The notes below the pieces were generated by a model, which worked only from the letters and a program-made list of their open reading frames with translations, was not told the origin of the DNA and did not search any database. From NCBI GenBank assembly GCA_000165345.1, contig CM000434.1, forward strand, positions 160,001-224,000: 64,000 nt of DNA. The letters are read 5' to 3'. Shown here piece by piece: positions 36,111-55,643 of the stretch. Position 1 is the stretch's first letter. Each line of letters begins with the position of its first letter. Position numbers and translations under genes: made by a program.

Positions 36111-36156
36111 TTTGGCGGGAAATCCGCAATTTTTTTGCATGCTACAAAAAGGCGGG
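36111..36156. promoter_or_regulatory. E2F-like motif cluster: TTTGGCGGGAAAT, then GCATGC, then AAAGGCGGGTTG
   Basis: TTTGGCGGGAAA is the canonical E2F/DP site consensus. It lies ~800 bp upstream of the rhomboid start (minus strand) in a 2 kb region with few ORFs. Confidence 0.4.
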
Positions 36157-36439
36157 TTGTGGGGGAGGAATAATGAAAATTTAAAAAAAATAAAGAAAAA
36201 AAAATTGGAAGATCGATAAGTAACTTCTTATTTGCATTGATATATTTATGATATGACTGTTATTAAAAAAGATATTTAGTAAATATAAAGAGTAGGAAAA
36301 ACTAATATTCTAATCTTTCTTATCATAATTAATCAAATAATTTACTTTGTGACTTTCACCCAGAAATTTTTTGAGATTATAAAGAATTTCCCGCCAAAAA
36401 TGGGAATACAGTTATAATAGAAAAATAATAGTGGAATAG

Positions 36440-38785: not shown

Positions 38786-39670
38786 TCAATTACGTGATCT
38801 ACCTAACAACAATATAAATAGTATTACTAGTAATCCAACAGCCAGTCCAGAAGATGTACCTAAAATGATATTAAACTTGTTATCAGATGAAATTGTACAG
38901 TTTCTACCATAAAATCCTTCTGCACATTTACAATAATATCCATCGTTGCCTATATTAAAACATTCACCACTATTCTGGCATATTGGTTCTAACTGAGTAT
39001 CACAAATTCCCTCGCATCCTGAACATTCCACAACCTGTCTTAACTGATTAGATGACGGACATGCAGTACCTCCATTCATTGCCTCCCTCACAACTACTCT
39101 ATATCTTGATTTGGTTCCCTCGCATAAAAACTTTGAGCAACCAGTCCAAGGAGACCAAAAAGAGAGAACACAATCGACTGGGCATGGAGAAGAATTACAT
39201 GAAGATGTTTCTTTAAGCAAAGAATCACAACCAGGAGCAGAGTGGGTCAATTCTCTTGTCCTGATTGTAAGCCCTCCGTCACAAGAAGCTGAGCAAGGAG
39301 ACCAACTTCCCCAATCAGTGAATCCACATGGCAAACACTCCACATCCGAATTACAAGCAGAAATCTGGGAAGTTATAGTACATTCTAATCCTCCTGCCAT
39401 AACCTCATTTAATGGATATCTCCATCTATAAGTTGTTCCACCATTGCAAGTACTTGTACAAGGAAGCCAAGATGACCATTGAGAATACTCACAATCCAAT
39501 GTAGATATTGCAAATCTTGTAGTTGAATACACTCCTGCTTCATTTGGATAAATTAATCCTACTGATTCTGGTTTATATGAGTGCACTCCACAATGAAATA
39601 TGGTTCCCAATGACCATAATGACTCTCTTACAAAAACGTCAACTCCGAACTTTTTGTTAATCAATATCGA
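38786..39670 (-). CDS. TSP1-EGF adhesin gene A, exon 2: 3 thrombospondin type 1 repeats, 1 EGF domain, a TM helix and a short tail
   Basis: TSP1 motifs: YSQWSSWLPCTSTCNGGTTYRWR, FTDWGSWSPCSASCDGGLTIRTR and SFWSPWTGCSKFLCEGTKSRYR. EGF: CDTQLEPICQNSGECFNIGNDGYYCKCAEGFYGRNC. TM: LAVGLLVILFILLLG. The listed ORF starts on a TTG codon with no upstream ATG before a stop, consistent with being a downstream exon. Confidence 0.6.
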   Translation of the reverse strand, partial: SILINKKFGVDVFVRESLWSLGTIFHCGVHSYKPESVGLIYPNEAGVYSTTRFAISTLDCEYSQWSSWLPCTSTCNGGTTYRWRYPLNEVMAGGLECTITSQISACNSDVECLPCGFTDWGSWSPCSASCDGGLTIRTRELTHSAPGCDSLLKETSSCNSSPCPVDCVLSFWSPWTGCSKFLCEGTKSRYRVVVREAMNGGTACPSSNQLRQVVECSGCEGICDTQLEPICQNSGECFNIGNDGYYCKCAEGFYGRNCTISSDNKFNIILGTSSGLAVGLLVILFILLLGRSRN

Positions 39671-39896
<226 letters not shown>

Positions 39897-40889
39897 ATTG
39901 AAAGGTTGACCTGGATTATCAAAATCAAAAGGATAATCTCCACTAACTGTATAACTTGTACCACTTAATAATACACCCGAACTTAAACAATATGAATTAC
40001 TTGACAAAGTTGCAAAAAATCCATTCATTCTATAATAAAACTGACTCTGATCGCTTGTAAATACTGCTACTGTACCTCCCCATCCGTATCTTTTATCATT
40101 AACTGGATACATACTTGCTGAATGTAGATGTATTTCTAGTTCTTCTGGCCAAGATTTATAATTTTTTGGAATTCTATCACCATTTGGTACTCCAGATTTC
40201 TCATCAATTCCGGTACTATTTACATAATACAAATTTTTATCATCAAAATAGTATCTTTGTTGAAATTCATCCCAGAAATAAGTCCTTCTATAAGGATCTG
40301 CCAAAGGAACATTTCTTGTAATTTTATATTTACTAAAGTTATTTTGTCCATTACCAAAAGTTAATTTATTCACATTTGAATACACTATGCTATGACAAGG
40401 ATAATATGGTCCACTTCCTGAAATATAAAAGTAAAACCCTCCTGGCCATCTTAATTTCTCAACTACCAAGTCAAGATCCATCAATTTTGGCTTATACGGA
40501 AATGGAAAGTAAGCATAAGATCTAGCCCATCTCTCTTCTGAAGTATATCCTGTAGATTCCACATCTACTGTTTGTGCTGCAAAATTTATCATCAACTTAC
40601 AGTGGTATAAATCACCATTCTGAATTGTTACCAAAGTTTCTTTATCATTTTCTGCGTTAAATTTACCCACAATCCTAAAAGATACTCCAGAATACCAAGG
40701 TAGCTTATTTGAACTAAATGTATATACTAACCCTTCACTGGTAATATCTTTCCATGCTTTTGTCCAACTGAAACTTGGTGGTAAAGAATTTATTTCTAAA
40801 ATATTAAATATAAGAATATGTATTAATATAAAATATAAAATTCTTCTTATTTTCATAAACTTTAAATCATATTGTCTAAATTCTAACAT
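39897..40889 (-). CDS. TSP1-EGF adhesin gene A, exon 1: signal peptide plus a ~330-aa N-terminal extracellular domain
   Basis: The ORF-track start at 40901 is a TTG; the first ATGs in frame are at 40889 and 40856. The signal peptide is MKIRRILYFILIHILIFNILEINS. The exon ends ...DNPGQPFN immediately before GTAAGT, a consensus 5' splice donor. Coordinates +/-2. Confidence 0.55.
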
Positions 40890-41479
40890 TTTTCTTTTCA
40901 ACTTTGTTTTGATTACATTGAATTAAAACCTTTTATTGGTGTTTTGAAACTAATTAAAATTAATTCTTCTTTCCATTCATGAATTATTCAATCCTTATTT
41001 ATAGCCAATACTTTTACTTAATTTAAAAGAATACACCAAATGTGATATTATTCAGCAACCTTTAAAAAATATAATTTTATTAATAATATAATTTTAAATT
41101 TAATACTTTTCTCTGTGTGTGTAATTTATCCTATTATCAACTCCTTTTCCCATGTTCAATTTAGATTAATATTTATTTCAATATTAAACAGCAGGTAATA
41201 GGTACCATTTCAGCCCGCCAAAACATGCCCCACTTATTTCCAATATTATTATCAATGCTGTATAAGTAATATAAATAATATAATAAGAATAAATATAAAT
41301 ATGATCCATGTAATAATATATTAGATAAATTAAAATTTATCTATAATTTACCATTATTTTAGTTAAATTAATAATTTATTAGAATTTGTGAAGGATAATA
41401 AATATTAATCCATCGAAATAAGCTTTATGTTTTAATTACAATTATCCAGAATTAAGGTTTAATAAAGAATTCATGCTCA

Positions 41480-41610
41480 ATGTTGTCTTGCCATATTATT
41501 AATGGCATAATATTAATTGGTTTATTATTTTTTTTAAGATTTGATAATATAAGTTCACAAATTGCAGATTTTCGTCTGCCTGAAACTCGCTTATGCACCA
41601 ATCCATATAC
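41480..41610 (+). CDS. TSP1-EGF adhesin gene B, exon 1 (signal peptide)
   Basis: ATG at 41480 encodes MLSCHIINGIILIGLLFFLRFDNISSQIADFRLPETRLCTNPY. The exon ends 2 nt into a codon, immediately before GTAAGT at 41611. An in-frame stop lies upstream at ~41453. Confidence 0.6.
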
Positions 41611-41687
41611 GTAAGTTTGACGTAATTTTCTTTAAAAAAAATAACTTTATTTGATTATTTGTTTATATTTTAAAAATGAATTTCTAG
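41611..41687 (+). other. Predicted 77-nt intron of TSP1-EGF adhesin gene B
   Basis: GTAAGTTTGAC ... AT-rich ... AATTTCTAG. The splice restores the frame exactly into the listed ORF, whose annotated start at 41803 is a TTG (Leu), not ATG. Confidence 0.55.
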
Positions 41688-42930
41688 TTTTGGATTTGCA
41701 ATAGAACAAGATACTGATATTCAATTAATAGATGATGATATTTGGCCTTTAAATCAAGTCTTCTCTGCCGGTGGTAGTATTTCTGACAATGGATTCCAAA
41801 TATTGTTTGCAACCGCAAAAAAAAATTCTTATGAATTGATCATTTCAGTTTATCCATTGCTCACTACAGTAGTAAGAGAATGTACTTATGAAGGAAAAGT
41901 TGTAAGAAGGCTTAAATCCGTAGTAGAACATTCCCCAAGATTTGAAAAATGGCCATTCTTTGATAAGTGGGTTATTAGCTTTCAAAGACAAGAATATGGA
42001 ATTTCAATTTCTTTTAACCAAGGTTATACTGAATCTTTATTTTGGAAAAGATGTCTAAATGAACCAATAGTCAGCGTTAAGGTAGAATCAAAAGATGCCT
42101 ATCTTTCAGCTGACCAAGTTGATTGTATCGTATCAGAATGGAGTTCTTGGTCCCAATGTAGTTCAAGTTGTCAGATAGGTACTAGATCAAGAACTAGATT
42201 AATATTAAGACCAGCTTCTTTTGAAGGTACCACATGTCCAAACTTGATAGAAAATGAAGGATGTAACACTAGCATATCTTGTGAAGATTGTGCCTATTCT
42301 TCTTGGTCTCCTTGGAGTGAGTGTAGTGTTACTTGCCAAGGTGGATTTCGTTCTCGAACTAGAAAGCTGATTTGGAAATCTGACATTAAAGGGAGATGTG
42401 AAGATAATGAATCAGATATAGAATCTTGTAATGAACAAAGTTGTCCAGTAAATTGTAGACTCTCAAGCTGGACTTCATGGAGTATATGCTCTTCTACTTG
42501 TGGTCCAGGTAATAAGATGAGATATAGAATTATTTTAGCTCAATCAGATCTTGGTGGAGTACAGTGTCCGACAGAAAAGGAAATTACTGAGCGTGCTTCA
42601 TGTCAACTTCAAGAATGCGAAAAATCTTGTTCAACTGGAGAAATTTGCAAAAATGGTGGGACTTGTATTGATATCCCTAATAGCGGTTTTTCTTGTGAAT
42701 GTGCTGAAGATTATTTTGGTAAATTTTGTGAACACAAGAAATATAGCTGGTGGGTTTATTTTGTTTTTTGCATTGCTACACAAATTATTATTGGAGCAAT
42801 TGTAAAGAGTACATTCCTTTCAAGACCTGCACCAATTACTGAAACGCCAGTTACTTACAACCAAGAATATGCTTTCAATGATTATCCGACAGCATTTGAT
42901 CAAAATACTGACATTTCTGGTGTTTTTTAA
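41688..42930 (+). CDS. TSP1-EGF adhesin gene B, exon 2: N-terminal domain, 3 TSP1 repeats, 1 EGF, a TM helix and an aromatic-rich cytoplasmic tail
   Basis: TSP1 motifs: SEWSSWSQCSSSCQIGTRSRTR, SSWSPWSECSVTCQGGFRSRTR and SSWTSWSICSSTCGPGNKMRYR. EGF: CSTGEICKNGGTCIDIPNSGFSCECAEDYFGKFC. TM: WWVYFVFCIATQIIIGAIV. The tail is ...YNQEYAFNDYPTAFDQNTDISGVF. Confidence 0.7.
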
Positions 42931-43291
42931 TATATACAATGATCAAACTCTTCCAACCCTAATTTTTTAACAATTAATAAATCAATTTATATATACATAT
43001 ATATACAATATAAATATAAGTAATCAATTTTAATTTTTTTTTTGTAAATGTTTTTCTTTGCATGACTTTTTGTGTGCAATTTCCATAATATTAATTTTTA
43101 TGTGGTCAGGCGCCACTGAATGCCGGTATAGGACAAATAACTAATAAATATAATGAAATTATTAAAGTGAAAATAATAAAAAATTTGATTTATAAAAACC
43201 CCAAAAAAATCCCACAAATTAGCAAATAAAAGTTTAATAATACAATATAAATATTAATTTAAAAAAATCAAGTTTGGAACACAAACCTAAT

Positions 43292-44551
43292 ATGTATATT
43301 AGAAGTGAATCAGAAGAAGAATTAAAGCATGGGGAAGAAATTGATGAAGTTGGTTGTTTATTAATATTTGATGAAACATATAAATCAGTTATTGATTCCT
43401 TTCCATTGAATGAAGGAAAGAATTATGTATGTGGATCAACAAGATCAGTTTTTGAACCAATTAATGAAAAATCTAAAAAGAGAGCAAAGAATACAAAATT
43501 CAAGGGTAATAGTAAAATTAATAATGAAGATTATCATGCAATAATATATGTTGAACATGGTGAATTTTTTGTTGAAGATAATAACACTGATATTGGTACA
43601 TTCCGAAAAAATTTGAAATATAAAATTCAACCAAATTGTAAATATGAATTAATTCCAGGGGAGGATTTATATTTTGGTAATTTAAAAACTAAATTAATAA
43701 GGTATGATTCTATGGATTCAATTGAGACACCAAGATGGAAAAGGCATAGTATTGAAAATAATGATAATAATCATCATCAAATACAGTTAGAGAATATTGA
43801 AGAAAGTCCAAAAACTAATCATATAGAAGATATTGATTTAAATAAAAGTAAAAAGAAATCTTTAGGAAATGAGTCAACATCAACATTAAATGATGATATT
43901 GAAAATGATTCTTTACTTTCAAATAGGCCAAAAAGGAAATCTCCTAAATGTATTAAAGATGAAAAGATGAATAACTTACCATTGTTAAAAAGTAACAATA
44001 CAGATAAAGTAATATTATTATGGACTGGATGTACCCCAACAAGTAAAGATATGGAGTTAATTAAGAGAGCAAATATAACTTCAATAGATTCTGAAGATCT
44101 TGAATTTATGTCTGATCAAGTTACACACGTAGTATCATCTTCAATAAAGAGAACATTGAAATTTTTATGGGCAATATCAAAAGGTCTTCCCATAATATCT
44201 CCATCTACATTAAGAAATATATTAAATTCGAATAGAAATAAAGATTTAAGCTATAATGAATTTAATGATTTATGTATGAATCAATTACTTTCTGATTTGG
44301 AAGGTGAAAAGAAGTTTGGTTTTTCTCTTAAGAACTCTATTTGTAAAGCACAAAATAATATTCCAATATTCAATAATTATAAGTTTGTTATTTCCCCAAA
44401 TATAAAAGTTCCTTCCATTAGTGAAATCTCATGGTTATTAAAGTCAAGTAATGCTGAAATTATTCAATTTGAAAAAGCTAATAAAATTCAAGACAAATCT
44501 AATTTAATATTTATCGGTACTGTATTGGATTCTAATAAATTATTTAAGTAA
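43292..44551 (+). CDS. FHA domain plus C-terminal BRCT-domain protein; possible DNA-damage-response adaptor (Nbs1/Xrs2-like architecture)
   Basis: The listed ORF starts at a TTG at 43274 and the first ATG is 43292 (MYIRSESEEE). The FHA-like core is YVCGSTRSVFEP...HAIIYVEHGEFFVEDNNTDIGTFRKN...YELIPGEDLYFGN. The BRCT-like C-terminus is VILLWTGCTPTSKDMELIKRANITSIDSEDLEFMSDQVTHVVSSSIKRTLKFLWAISKGLPIISPSTL, with a second BRCT-like stretch YKFVISPN...IIQFEKANKIQDKSNLIFIGT. Confidence 0.45.
   Translation: MYIRSESEEELKHGEEIDEVGCLLIFDETYKSVIDSFPLNEGKNYVCGSTRSVFEPINEKSKKRAKNTKFKGNSKINNEDYHAIIYVEHGEFFVEDNNTDIGTFRKNLKYKIQPNCKYELIPGEDLYFGNLKTKLIRYDSMDSIETPRWKRHSIENNDNNHHQIQLENIEESPKTNHIEDIDLNKSKKKSLGNESTSTLNDDIENDSLLSNRPKRKSPKCIKDEKMNNLPLLKSNNTDKVILLWTGCTPTSKDMELIKRANITSIDSEDLEFMSDQVTHVVSSSIKRTLKFLWAISKGLPIISPSTLRNILNSNRNKDLSYNEFNDLCMNQLLSDLEGEKKFGFSLKNSICKAQNNIPIFNNYKFVISPNIKVPSISEISWLLKSSNAEIIQFEKANKIQDKSNLIFIGTVLDSNKLFK

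Positions 44552-46577: not shown

Positions 46578-55643
<9,066 letters not shown>

Follow-up and report, generated by a model that had tools for sequence, protein, structure and literature searches.

Downstream of position 41,480 the window, a stretch of 64,000 nucleotides, holds an open reading frame that was listed with a TTG start codon and that encodes an adhesin-like protein lacking a signal peptide. The locus raises the question of whether this frame is a complete gene or the larger part of a spliced one, and of how that gene relates to the adhesin gene diverging from it on the opposite strand. The AT-rich window (26.8% GC) almost certainly comes from chromosome 6 of Cryptosporidium parvum, and with the same near certainty the feature can be identified as the known gene CpTSP9 (cgd6_800), composed of two exons separated by a 77-nt intron. 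The two-exon model of the preliminary description is sound, but the gene had already been annotated and was known.

Identity and splice structure of CpTSP9

The spliced 457-aa product matches residue for residue the GenBank entries of C. parvum CpTSP9, EAK90180.1 and QOY40957.1 (further identifiers of the gene: CPATCC_002582, UniProt Q5CXK0), and over 13.4 kb the window shares 99.8-99.9% identity with both public C. parvum loci. The gene range is 1451 nt for 457 aa in each of two assemblies of C. parvum chromosome 6; therefore the 77-nt intron is implied in both. We compared the locus among C. parvum, Cryptosporidium chipmunk genotype I, C. canis, C. felis, C. xiaoi and C. serpentis, the last being a distant gastric species. 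CpTSP9 is 46-90% identical over its full length to the orthologues of the five other species, and in all six species (C. parvum represented by two assemblies) it is divergent from and adjoins CpTSP8, and it is followed by a gene encoding a BRCT-domain protein. By identity, TSP1 domains and synteny the gene belongs to the CpTSP9 orthologue group, and it shows all the marks of the CpTSP family because the sequence of the window is the reference sequence itself. CpTSP9 is reportedly named in the description of the CpTSP family by Deng et al. 2002. It was re-examined more recently (PMC10034466).

The ATG at 41480, which is the first in-frame ATG downstream of an upstream stop, opens MLSCHIINGIILIGLLFFLRF... 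(the frame encodes MLSCHIINGIILIGLLFFLRFDNISSQIADF...). A GTAAGT donor at 41611-41616 and a TTTCTAG acceptor at 41681-41687 restore the reading frame, and the joined exons form a 1374-nt coding sequence of 457 codons plus stop. Without splicing, the exon 1 frame ends at once after the donor (ACG TAA). The exon 2 frame is closed on its upstream side by a TGA at 41677 and contains its first ATG only at residue 320, so the TTG start at 41803 is spurious, a product of the bacterial rule for calling ORFs. The start codon, donor, acceptor and intron length had all been given correctly to the base in the preliminary description, which had also recognised the listed frame as incomplete, and the predicted product agrees with the public annotation to the residue. 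Among the GT..AG pairs of the region, 16 preserve the frame and a single one, the 41611/41687 pair, has the GTAAGT donor.

The intron lies at the same codon in six of six species, in phase 2 and between NPY[T/S] and FG, with GT-AG ends throughout. Its length varies (77, 78, 52, 68, 63 and 112 nt, which modulo 3 gives 2, 0, 1, 2, 0 and 1), and its sequence diverges between species outside GTAAGTTT, the introns of the other species being 30-70% identical to that of C. parvum and those of the more distant species 30-47%. Read-through meets an immediate stop in five of the six species. In the 18 codons of exon 1 that follow the signal peptide, divergence is found mainly at third positions, as in exon 2. 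The interval is thus a GT-AG intron by its donor and frame as well as by its conserved position and variable length. For the other species, annotations may reflect transfer by homology; the conserved reading frame, the GT-AG termini and the variation in intron length, however, can be read directly from the DNA.

RNA-level support for the junction comes from the literature. The cgd6_800 primers published in a genome-wide RT-qPCR study fall within exon 1 (41585-41604) and within exon 2 (41759-41780), and this pair, which spans the intron, gave a reproducible developmental signal (PMC3305300). Both exons are therefore on the same RNA; since the product size is unreported in PMC3305300, the amplicon by itself is no proof of splicing. 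The IOWA-ATCC annotation, which contains exactly the same protein, is described as having introns with 100% RNA-seq support (PMC8744675).

Two other gene models were weighed against the two-exon model with the 77-nt intron. The 2003 annotation of chromosome 6 used a 137-nt intron from the GT at 41574 to the AG at 41710, yielding a 437-aa product that is deposited in GenBank (CAD98628.1), and this intron is likewise one of the 16 frame-preserving pairs. Its sites are weak (donor GTCTGC, acceptor AACAAG), and its use would cost the protein 20 residues (RLPETRLCTNPYTFGFAIEQD), among them the NPY-FG residues invariant in six species, from a stretch with coding-type conservation into which the forward qPCR primer falls. 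All annotations later than CAD98628.1 use the 77-nt intron, the comparative data favour it as well, and we regard the 437-aa model as highly improbable. As a rule, TTG start codons are not used by eukaryotic ribosomes. This bears on a model with no upstream exon, in which transcription would begin downstream of 41688 and a protein without a signal peptide would be made from within the listed frame. The mechanical ORF call is the sole point in favour of such a model; against it stand the listed frame, devoid of ATG before residue 320, the maintenance of exon 1 as coding sequence across species and the signal obtained with a qPCR primer located within exon 1, which together leave it a vanishingly small probability.

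Features of the CpTSP8-CpTSP9 locus, with positions counted from the first nucleotide of the window
Feature	Position	Strand	Description or basis
CpTSP8 exon 2	38786-39670	-	three TSP1, EGF, TM, 3-5-aa basic tail
CpTSP8 intron	39671-39896	-	226 nt, phase 0
(GA)34 microsatellite (ML2 typing marker)	39778-39845		in CpTSP8 intron
CpTSP8 exon 1	39897-40889 (alternative start 40856)	-	signal peptide and large N-terminal region
Divergent spacer	40890-41479	.	CpTSP8 ATG 40889 to CpTSP9 ATG 41480; 21% GC
Best-conserved spacer block	41199-41233	-	AGGTA-N7-CCCGCCAAAA-N-CCCCAC
CpTSP9 exon 1	41480-41610	+	131 nt; ATG, predicted signal peptide (~aa 1-26), first 18 residues of the likely mature protein
CpTSP9 exon 1, mature part	within 41480-41610	+	QIADF...NPYT, split codon, phase 2
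CpTSP9 intron	41611-41687	+	77 nt GT-AG, GTAAGTTT...TTTCTAG, 16% GC
CpTSP9 exon 2 including stop codon	41688-42930	+	1243 nt
Galectin-like domain (predicted)	~41689-42117	+	AF2 model and Foldseek
Three TSP1 repeats	42118-42621	+	Pfam
EGF	42622-42729	+	Pfam
TM	~42745-42804	+	hydrophobic segment WWVYFVFCIATQIIIGAIV
Acidic tail, 39-41 aa	to 42927	+	tail analysis

Domain composition and comparison with gliding adhesins

CpTSP9, of 457 aa, is predicted to be a type I membrane protein that comprises, from its N-terminus onwards, a signal peptide, a galectin-like β-sandwich, three TSP1 repeats, an EGF domain, a TM segment and an acidic tail. Hydropathy and conservation point to an N-terminal signal peptide: a hydrophobic core at aa 5-20 reaches a Kyte-Doolittle value of 3.05 and is followed by a conserved SQIADF, at which the mature protein probably begins. 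Pfam found the TSP1 and EGF domains in CpTSP9 above the curated cut-offs (PF19028 with 133.8 bits and PF00090 with 89.6 bits, each over three stretches, and EGF PF00008 with 34.9 bits), and its count of three TSP1 repeats and one EGF domain in both CpTSP8 and CpTSP9 agrees with the preliminary description. The TM segment was placed at residues 397-416 in PMC13095730, which lists the protein as micronemal on hyperLOPIT data and as a putative substrate of rhomboid proteases. Sporozoites contained peptides of CpTSP9 in low amounts, and the gene was non-polymorphic across 32 isolates (PMC10034466).

The N-terminal domain was modelled with AF2. For residues 26-188 the model reached a pLDDT of 62.6 and a pTM of 0.63, a moderate confidence, and in a Foldseek search against the PDB all 50 of the 50 best matches were galectins (TM 0.43-0.58, E ~1e-5 to 3e-4). 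The modelled domain would thus have the galectin β-sandwich fold, in agreement with the galectin-like domains described in CpTSP7-9 by John et al. 2023 (PMC10034466). A full-length AF2 model, built from an 8-sequence alignment, had a mean pLDDT of 45 and was dropped from the fold search. The galectins whose fold resembles that of the model include the Agrocybe lectin AAL, human galectin-7 and galectin-10, and their sequence identity to the CpTSP9 domain is 8-20%. By sequence profile the domain was not recognised as a galectin, Pfam Gal-bind_lectin giving no match in CpTSP9 at E <= 0.1. An exhaustive profile search with the N-terminal domain over 1.84 billion representatives returned no relatives beyond the TSP9 orthologues, its sole other match being one spurious tandem-repeat protein.

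TSP1-EGF-TM proteins had been placed by the preliminary description in the TRAP/CpTSP adhesin class and assigned to gliding and invasion. The class assignment holds in part. With the TRAP/MIC2 family (Plasmodium TRAP, Toxoplasma MIC2, Cryptosporidium TRAP-C1) CpTSP9 shares a type I topology, a signal peptide, TSP1 repeats, a single TM segment and a short acidic tail, as well as its reported location in the micronemes. Unlike the TRAP/MIC2 proteins, it carries both a galectin-like and an EGF domain, and no Pfam match to a vWA/I domain was found in it at E <= 0.1, the galectin-like domain standing in that place. The subterminal Trp is the link of TRAP-type tails to the motor. In the eight orthologues analysed the TSP9 tail is 39-40 aa long, counts 3-6 acidic but 0-1 basic residues and has the conserved C-terminus D-x-S-G-[IV]-[FYL]; Trp is absent from the tail in eight of eight, so that it has no subterminal Trp of the TRAP/MIC2 kind. 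CpTSP9 is accordingly TRAP-like at most. The use in gliding and invasion does not follow from these data: it was drawn from analogy, the tail of CpTSP9 lacks the subterminal Trp, and we found no functional experiments on CpTSP9 (motility, invasion) in the literature, which leaves a role in gliding an unproven analogy.

Judging from its domains and from what has been published on the family, CpTSP9 would enter the secretory pathway, be stored in the micronemes and then be exposed on the surface of the zoite. There its lectin-like and TSP1 domains might bind host glycoconjugates, and the domain set is consistent with adhesion to host glycans.

The divergent neighbour CpTSP8

The neighbouring gene on the minus strand is CpTSP8, also named CpMIC1 or sporozoite cysteine-rich protein (cgd6_780), and it consists of two exons. 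Translation from the ATG at 40889 yields 625 aa and from the ATG at 40856 yields 614 aa, which match exactly EAK90179.1 and QOY40956.1, respectively. CpTSP8 and CpTSP9 align collinearly over the module of three TSP1 repeats and EGF with 36% identity (206 aa, E=4e-42), and as judged from this alignment they are paralogues across the C-terminal 3xTSP1-EGF-TM module. Both have the order of three TSP1, EGF and TM and one intron each with a GTAAGTTT donor, and both are reported to be micronemal (PMC13095730).

Outside this module the two proteins differ. Their N-terminal regions (~350 aa in CpTSP8, ~160 aa in CpTSP9) showed no similarity in an hhalign comparison (probability 0.1%), which was run with shallow profiles (Neff ~1.7) and is insensitive, so that remote homology remains compatible with the result; PMC10034466 describes a galectin-like N-terminal domain in both. 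The intron of CpTSP8 follows aa 320 in phase 0, whereas that of CpTSP9 is at aa 44 in phase 2, and the tail of CpTSP8 consists of 3-5 basic residues in comparison with the 39-41 residues of the acidic CpTSP9 tail. The claim of a head-to-head paralogue is therefore correct for the C-terminal module and fails for the N-terminal domains and the tails. In the same way, the architecture that the two genes were said to share is limited to the C-terminal three TSP1, EGF and TM, because CpTSP8 is a two-exon gene with an N-terminal region of ~350 aa.

At the level of single TSP1 repeats the relation is less distinct. In a repeat-by-repeat score matrix the diagonal (108/115/107) was weakly favoured over the off-diagonal values (68-113), and scores within one protein were about the same as those between CpTSP8 and CpTSP9; repeat-level orthology is for these reasons not demonstrable. 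A shared ancestral intron was considered in view of the likeness between NPYS before the intron of TSP8 in C. xiaoi and NPYT before that of TSP9, and was rejected, since the phases are 0 and 2; the stretch between intron and first TSP1 repeat differs in length as well (58 and 145 aa). Because the head-to-head pair is found in six of six species including C. serpentis, any TSP8/TSP9 duplication would be older than the radiation of the genus.

A further member, CpTSP7 (cgd5_4470), is placed by the literature in the same subgroup as CpTSP9, with a galectin-like domain, TSP1 repeats, EGF and TM. Unlike CpTSP9 it is encoded on chromosome 5, is 656 aa long and is listed with two TSP1 repeats. CpTSP7 was not returned by homologue searches seeded with the CpTSP7 peptide from the literature, in the first of which matches were at most ~1.75 times the query length, a pattern that points to a length limit. 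In a CRISPR screen CpTSP8 was classed as high-fitness-conferring; CpTSP9 was outside the screened set.

Conserved spacer block and transcript timing

The two genes diverge from a spacer of 590 nt, when counted from the CpTSP8 ATG at 40889, or of 623 nt from the ATG at 40856; the interval of about 580 bp given previously, 40902-41479, had a wrong start. The spacer is poorly conserved as a whole: aligned across five intestinal species, it has 7.6% invariant columns. The best-conserved block holds the most invariant 20-column window of that alignment, and on the minus strand it contains an E2F-like TTTTGGCGGG (41213-41222) adjoining a G-box-like GTGGGG. It lies ~266 nt from the CpTSP9 ATG and ~325-358 nt from the CpTSP8 ATG, and the CCCGCCA core is present in the spacers of all five intestinal species. 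The sequence TTTGGCGGG, which in the spacer occupies 41214-41222 (minus strand), has four sites in the window where 0.02 would be expected. It forms the core of the E2F-like motif 4 of C. parvum, TTTGGCGGGAAV, defined in PMC3734150, whose 3' AAV flank reads CTG here. In the supplements of PMC3734150, neither cgd6_780 nor cgd6_800 is assigned to a cluster. From its motif and its conservation, the predicted E2F-like element is real and conserved, but generic.

Co-regulation of the two adhesins from their common spacer had been proposed and is not supported by published expression data. In an RT-qPCR time course, CpTSP8 transcripts peaked at 2 h, with values of 1.6e-5 to 4e-4, before falling more than 100-fold, while those of CpTSP9 were ~0 at 2 h and climbed steadily to 48-72 h, the levels of the two being similar only late, at 36-72 h (PMC3305300). 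A table from 2026 also gives opposite levels for the two genes in oocysts/sporozoites and in intracellular stages (PMC13095730).

The spacer could still act as one shared bidirectional promoter, with the E2F-like block co-regulating CpTSP8 and CpTSP9. The presence of a single strongly conserved block close to the middle of the spacer fits such a promoter, as does the similarity of the two transcripts at 36-72 h; moreover, E2F motifs dominate the open-chromatin peaks of C. parvum sporozoites, and more than half of the C. parvum peaks are annotated as bidirectional promoters (PMC11761812). The sharp difference at 2 h and the opposite stage levels argue against it, and so does the spacer of C. 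serpentis (314 nt), which is devoid of the E2F-like motif although the gene pair is kept there. In addition, E2F-like motifs are found upstream of ~2,379 genes and are not tied to any one pattern of expression (PMC3734150), so that little about timing can be read from the motif. On balance we hold co-regulation through a shared promoter to be rather doubtful. A variant, which we consider unlikely and advance with still more reserve, is that the E2F-like/G-box-like block forms the core of one bidirectional promoter and that the different timing of CpTSP8 and CpTSP9 is set after initiation. Were this so, timing might be achieved, for example, through storage or stability of CpTSP8 mRNA in sporozoites rather than through separate promoters.

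Nothing reported here goes beyond existing databases and literature. A two-exon eukaryotic gene model was rebuilt from raw sequence to the base, including the choice among competing splice sites, at a gene for which one early public annotation (CAD98628.1) appears to have chosen the wrong ones. The CpTSP family comprises 12 adhesin members and is under consideration for vaccines against cryptosporidiosis. Within it, the divergent tails and timing of CpTSP8 and CpTSP9 and the conserved E2F-like block between the two genes are modest points of interest.

The CpTSP8 intron and start codon

The published primers of the ML2 typing marker (AF344880, chromosome VI, AG repeat; primers in Table 1 of PMC4746124) were mapped onto the window, where they delimit a 233 bp product and therefore amplify the entire CpTSP8 intron together with 4+3 exon bases. 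Whereas the markers of that study are described there as located in coding regions, ML2 is intronic, and because of this position length steps of 2 nt are tolerated. The number of repeats is 34 in the window, 31 and 25 in the matching loci of two other C. parvum chromosome 6 assemblies (L001 and L002, respectively).

Two public start codons exist for CpTSP8 on the minus strand, ATG 40889 (625 aa) and ATG 40856 (614 aa). Sequence comparison favours the upstream ATG, since the second Met is replaced by Ile in chipmunk genotype I and the motif MLxFRQ[YF]DLKF, positioned upstream of the second Met, is conserved.

Features of the CpTSP8/CpTSP9 region and its surroundings (window coordinates unless stated otherwise)
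Feature	Position	Remark
(CT)34/(GA)34 microsatellite	39778-39845	inside CpTSP8 intron
ML2 primers	39877-39900(-), 39668-39688(+)	
ML2 amplicon	39668-39900	
Upstream ATG and 9-codon putative uORF (MLNVVLPYY)	41473-41502	overlaps main CpTSP9 ATG
CpTSP9 tail	42805-42927	residues 417-457; conserved, acidic, 39-40 aa
CpTSP8 C-terminus	about 38789-38803	tail of merely 3-5 basic residues (RSRN)
Further exact E2F-like sites	36111-36119(+), 36390-36398(-), 52868-52876(-)	
E2F-like sites of the form TTTGGCGC	35188, 37039, 61607	
BRCT-domain gene	43274-44551	L001 7813-9209; L002 7813-9072

Gene models of CpTSP9 and of TSP8 in other species

Out of frame and 7 nt 5' of the CpTSP9 start, the upstream ATG is kept in C. 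parvum, chipmunk genotype I and C. canis, and is not conserved in C. felis, C. xiaoi and C. serpentis. The public model CAD98628.1 (437 aa), spliced from GT 41574 to AG 41710, loses 20 conserved residues and appears to be a superseded mis-annotation. Moreover, TSP8 of C. canis is annotated at locus L004 (1166-3242) as a protein of 655 aa with 28 additional residues (DDRLDLFFLSYLCDKLLKLQSV...) that fall precisely on the conserved intron acceptor, and a second C. canis TSP8 on record (P0098) has 616 aa; the acceptor is likely wrongly placed in one of the two annotations. As no single GT-AG intron accounts for the 287 nt of intron sequence in the C. serpentis TSP8 gene, this gene may contain two introns.

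Neighbouring sites and the downstream gene

The E2F-like pattern TTTSGCGS was matched 7 times in the window (0.39 expected), and the additional sites presumably belong to the promoters of other genes. Downstream lies the BRCT-domain gene, for which the differing lengths annotated in two C. parvum assemblies (447 vs 419 aa) suggest an unsettled 3' exon or intron.

Cytoplasmic tails of the two paralogues

The cytoplasmic tails of CpTSP9 and CpTSP8 are strongly unlike. That of CpTSP9 carries a conserved P-V-T-Y-N-Q and terminates in D-x-S-G-[IV]-[FYL]. Of the pair, TSP9 alone could plausibly engage cytoplasmic partners.
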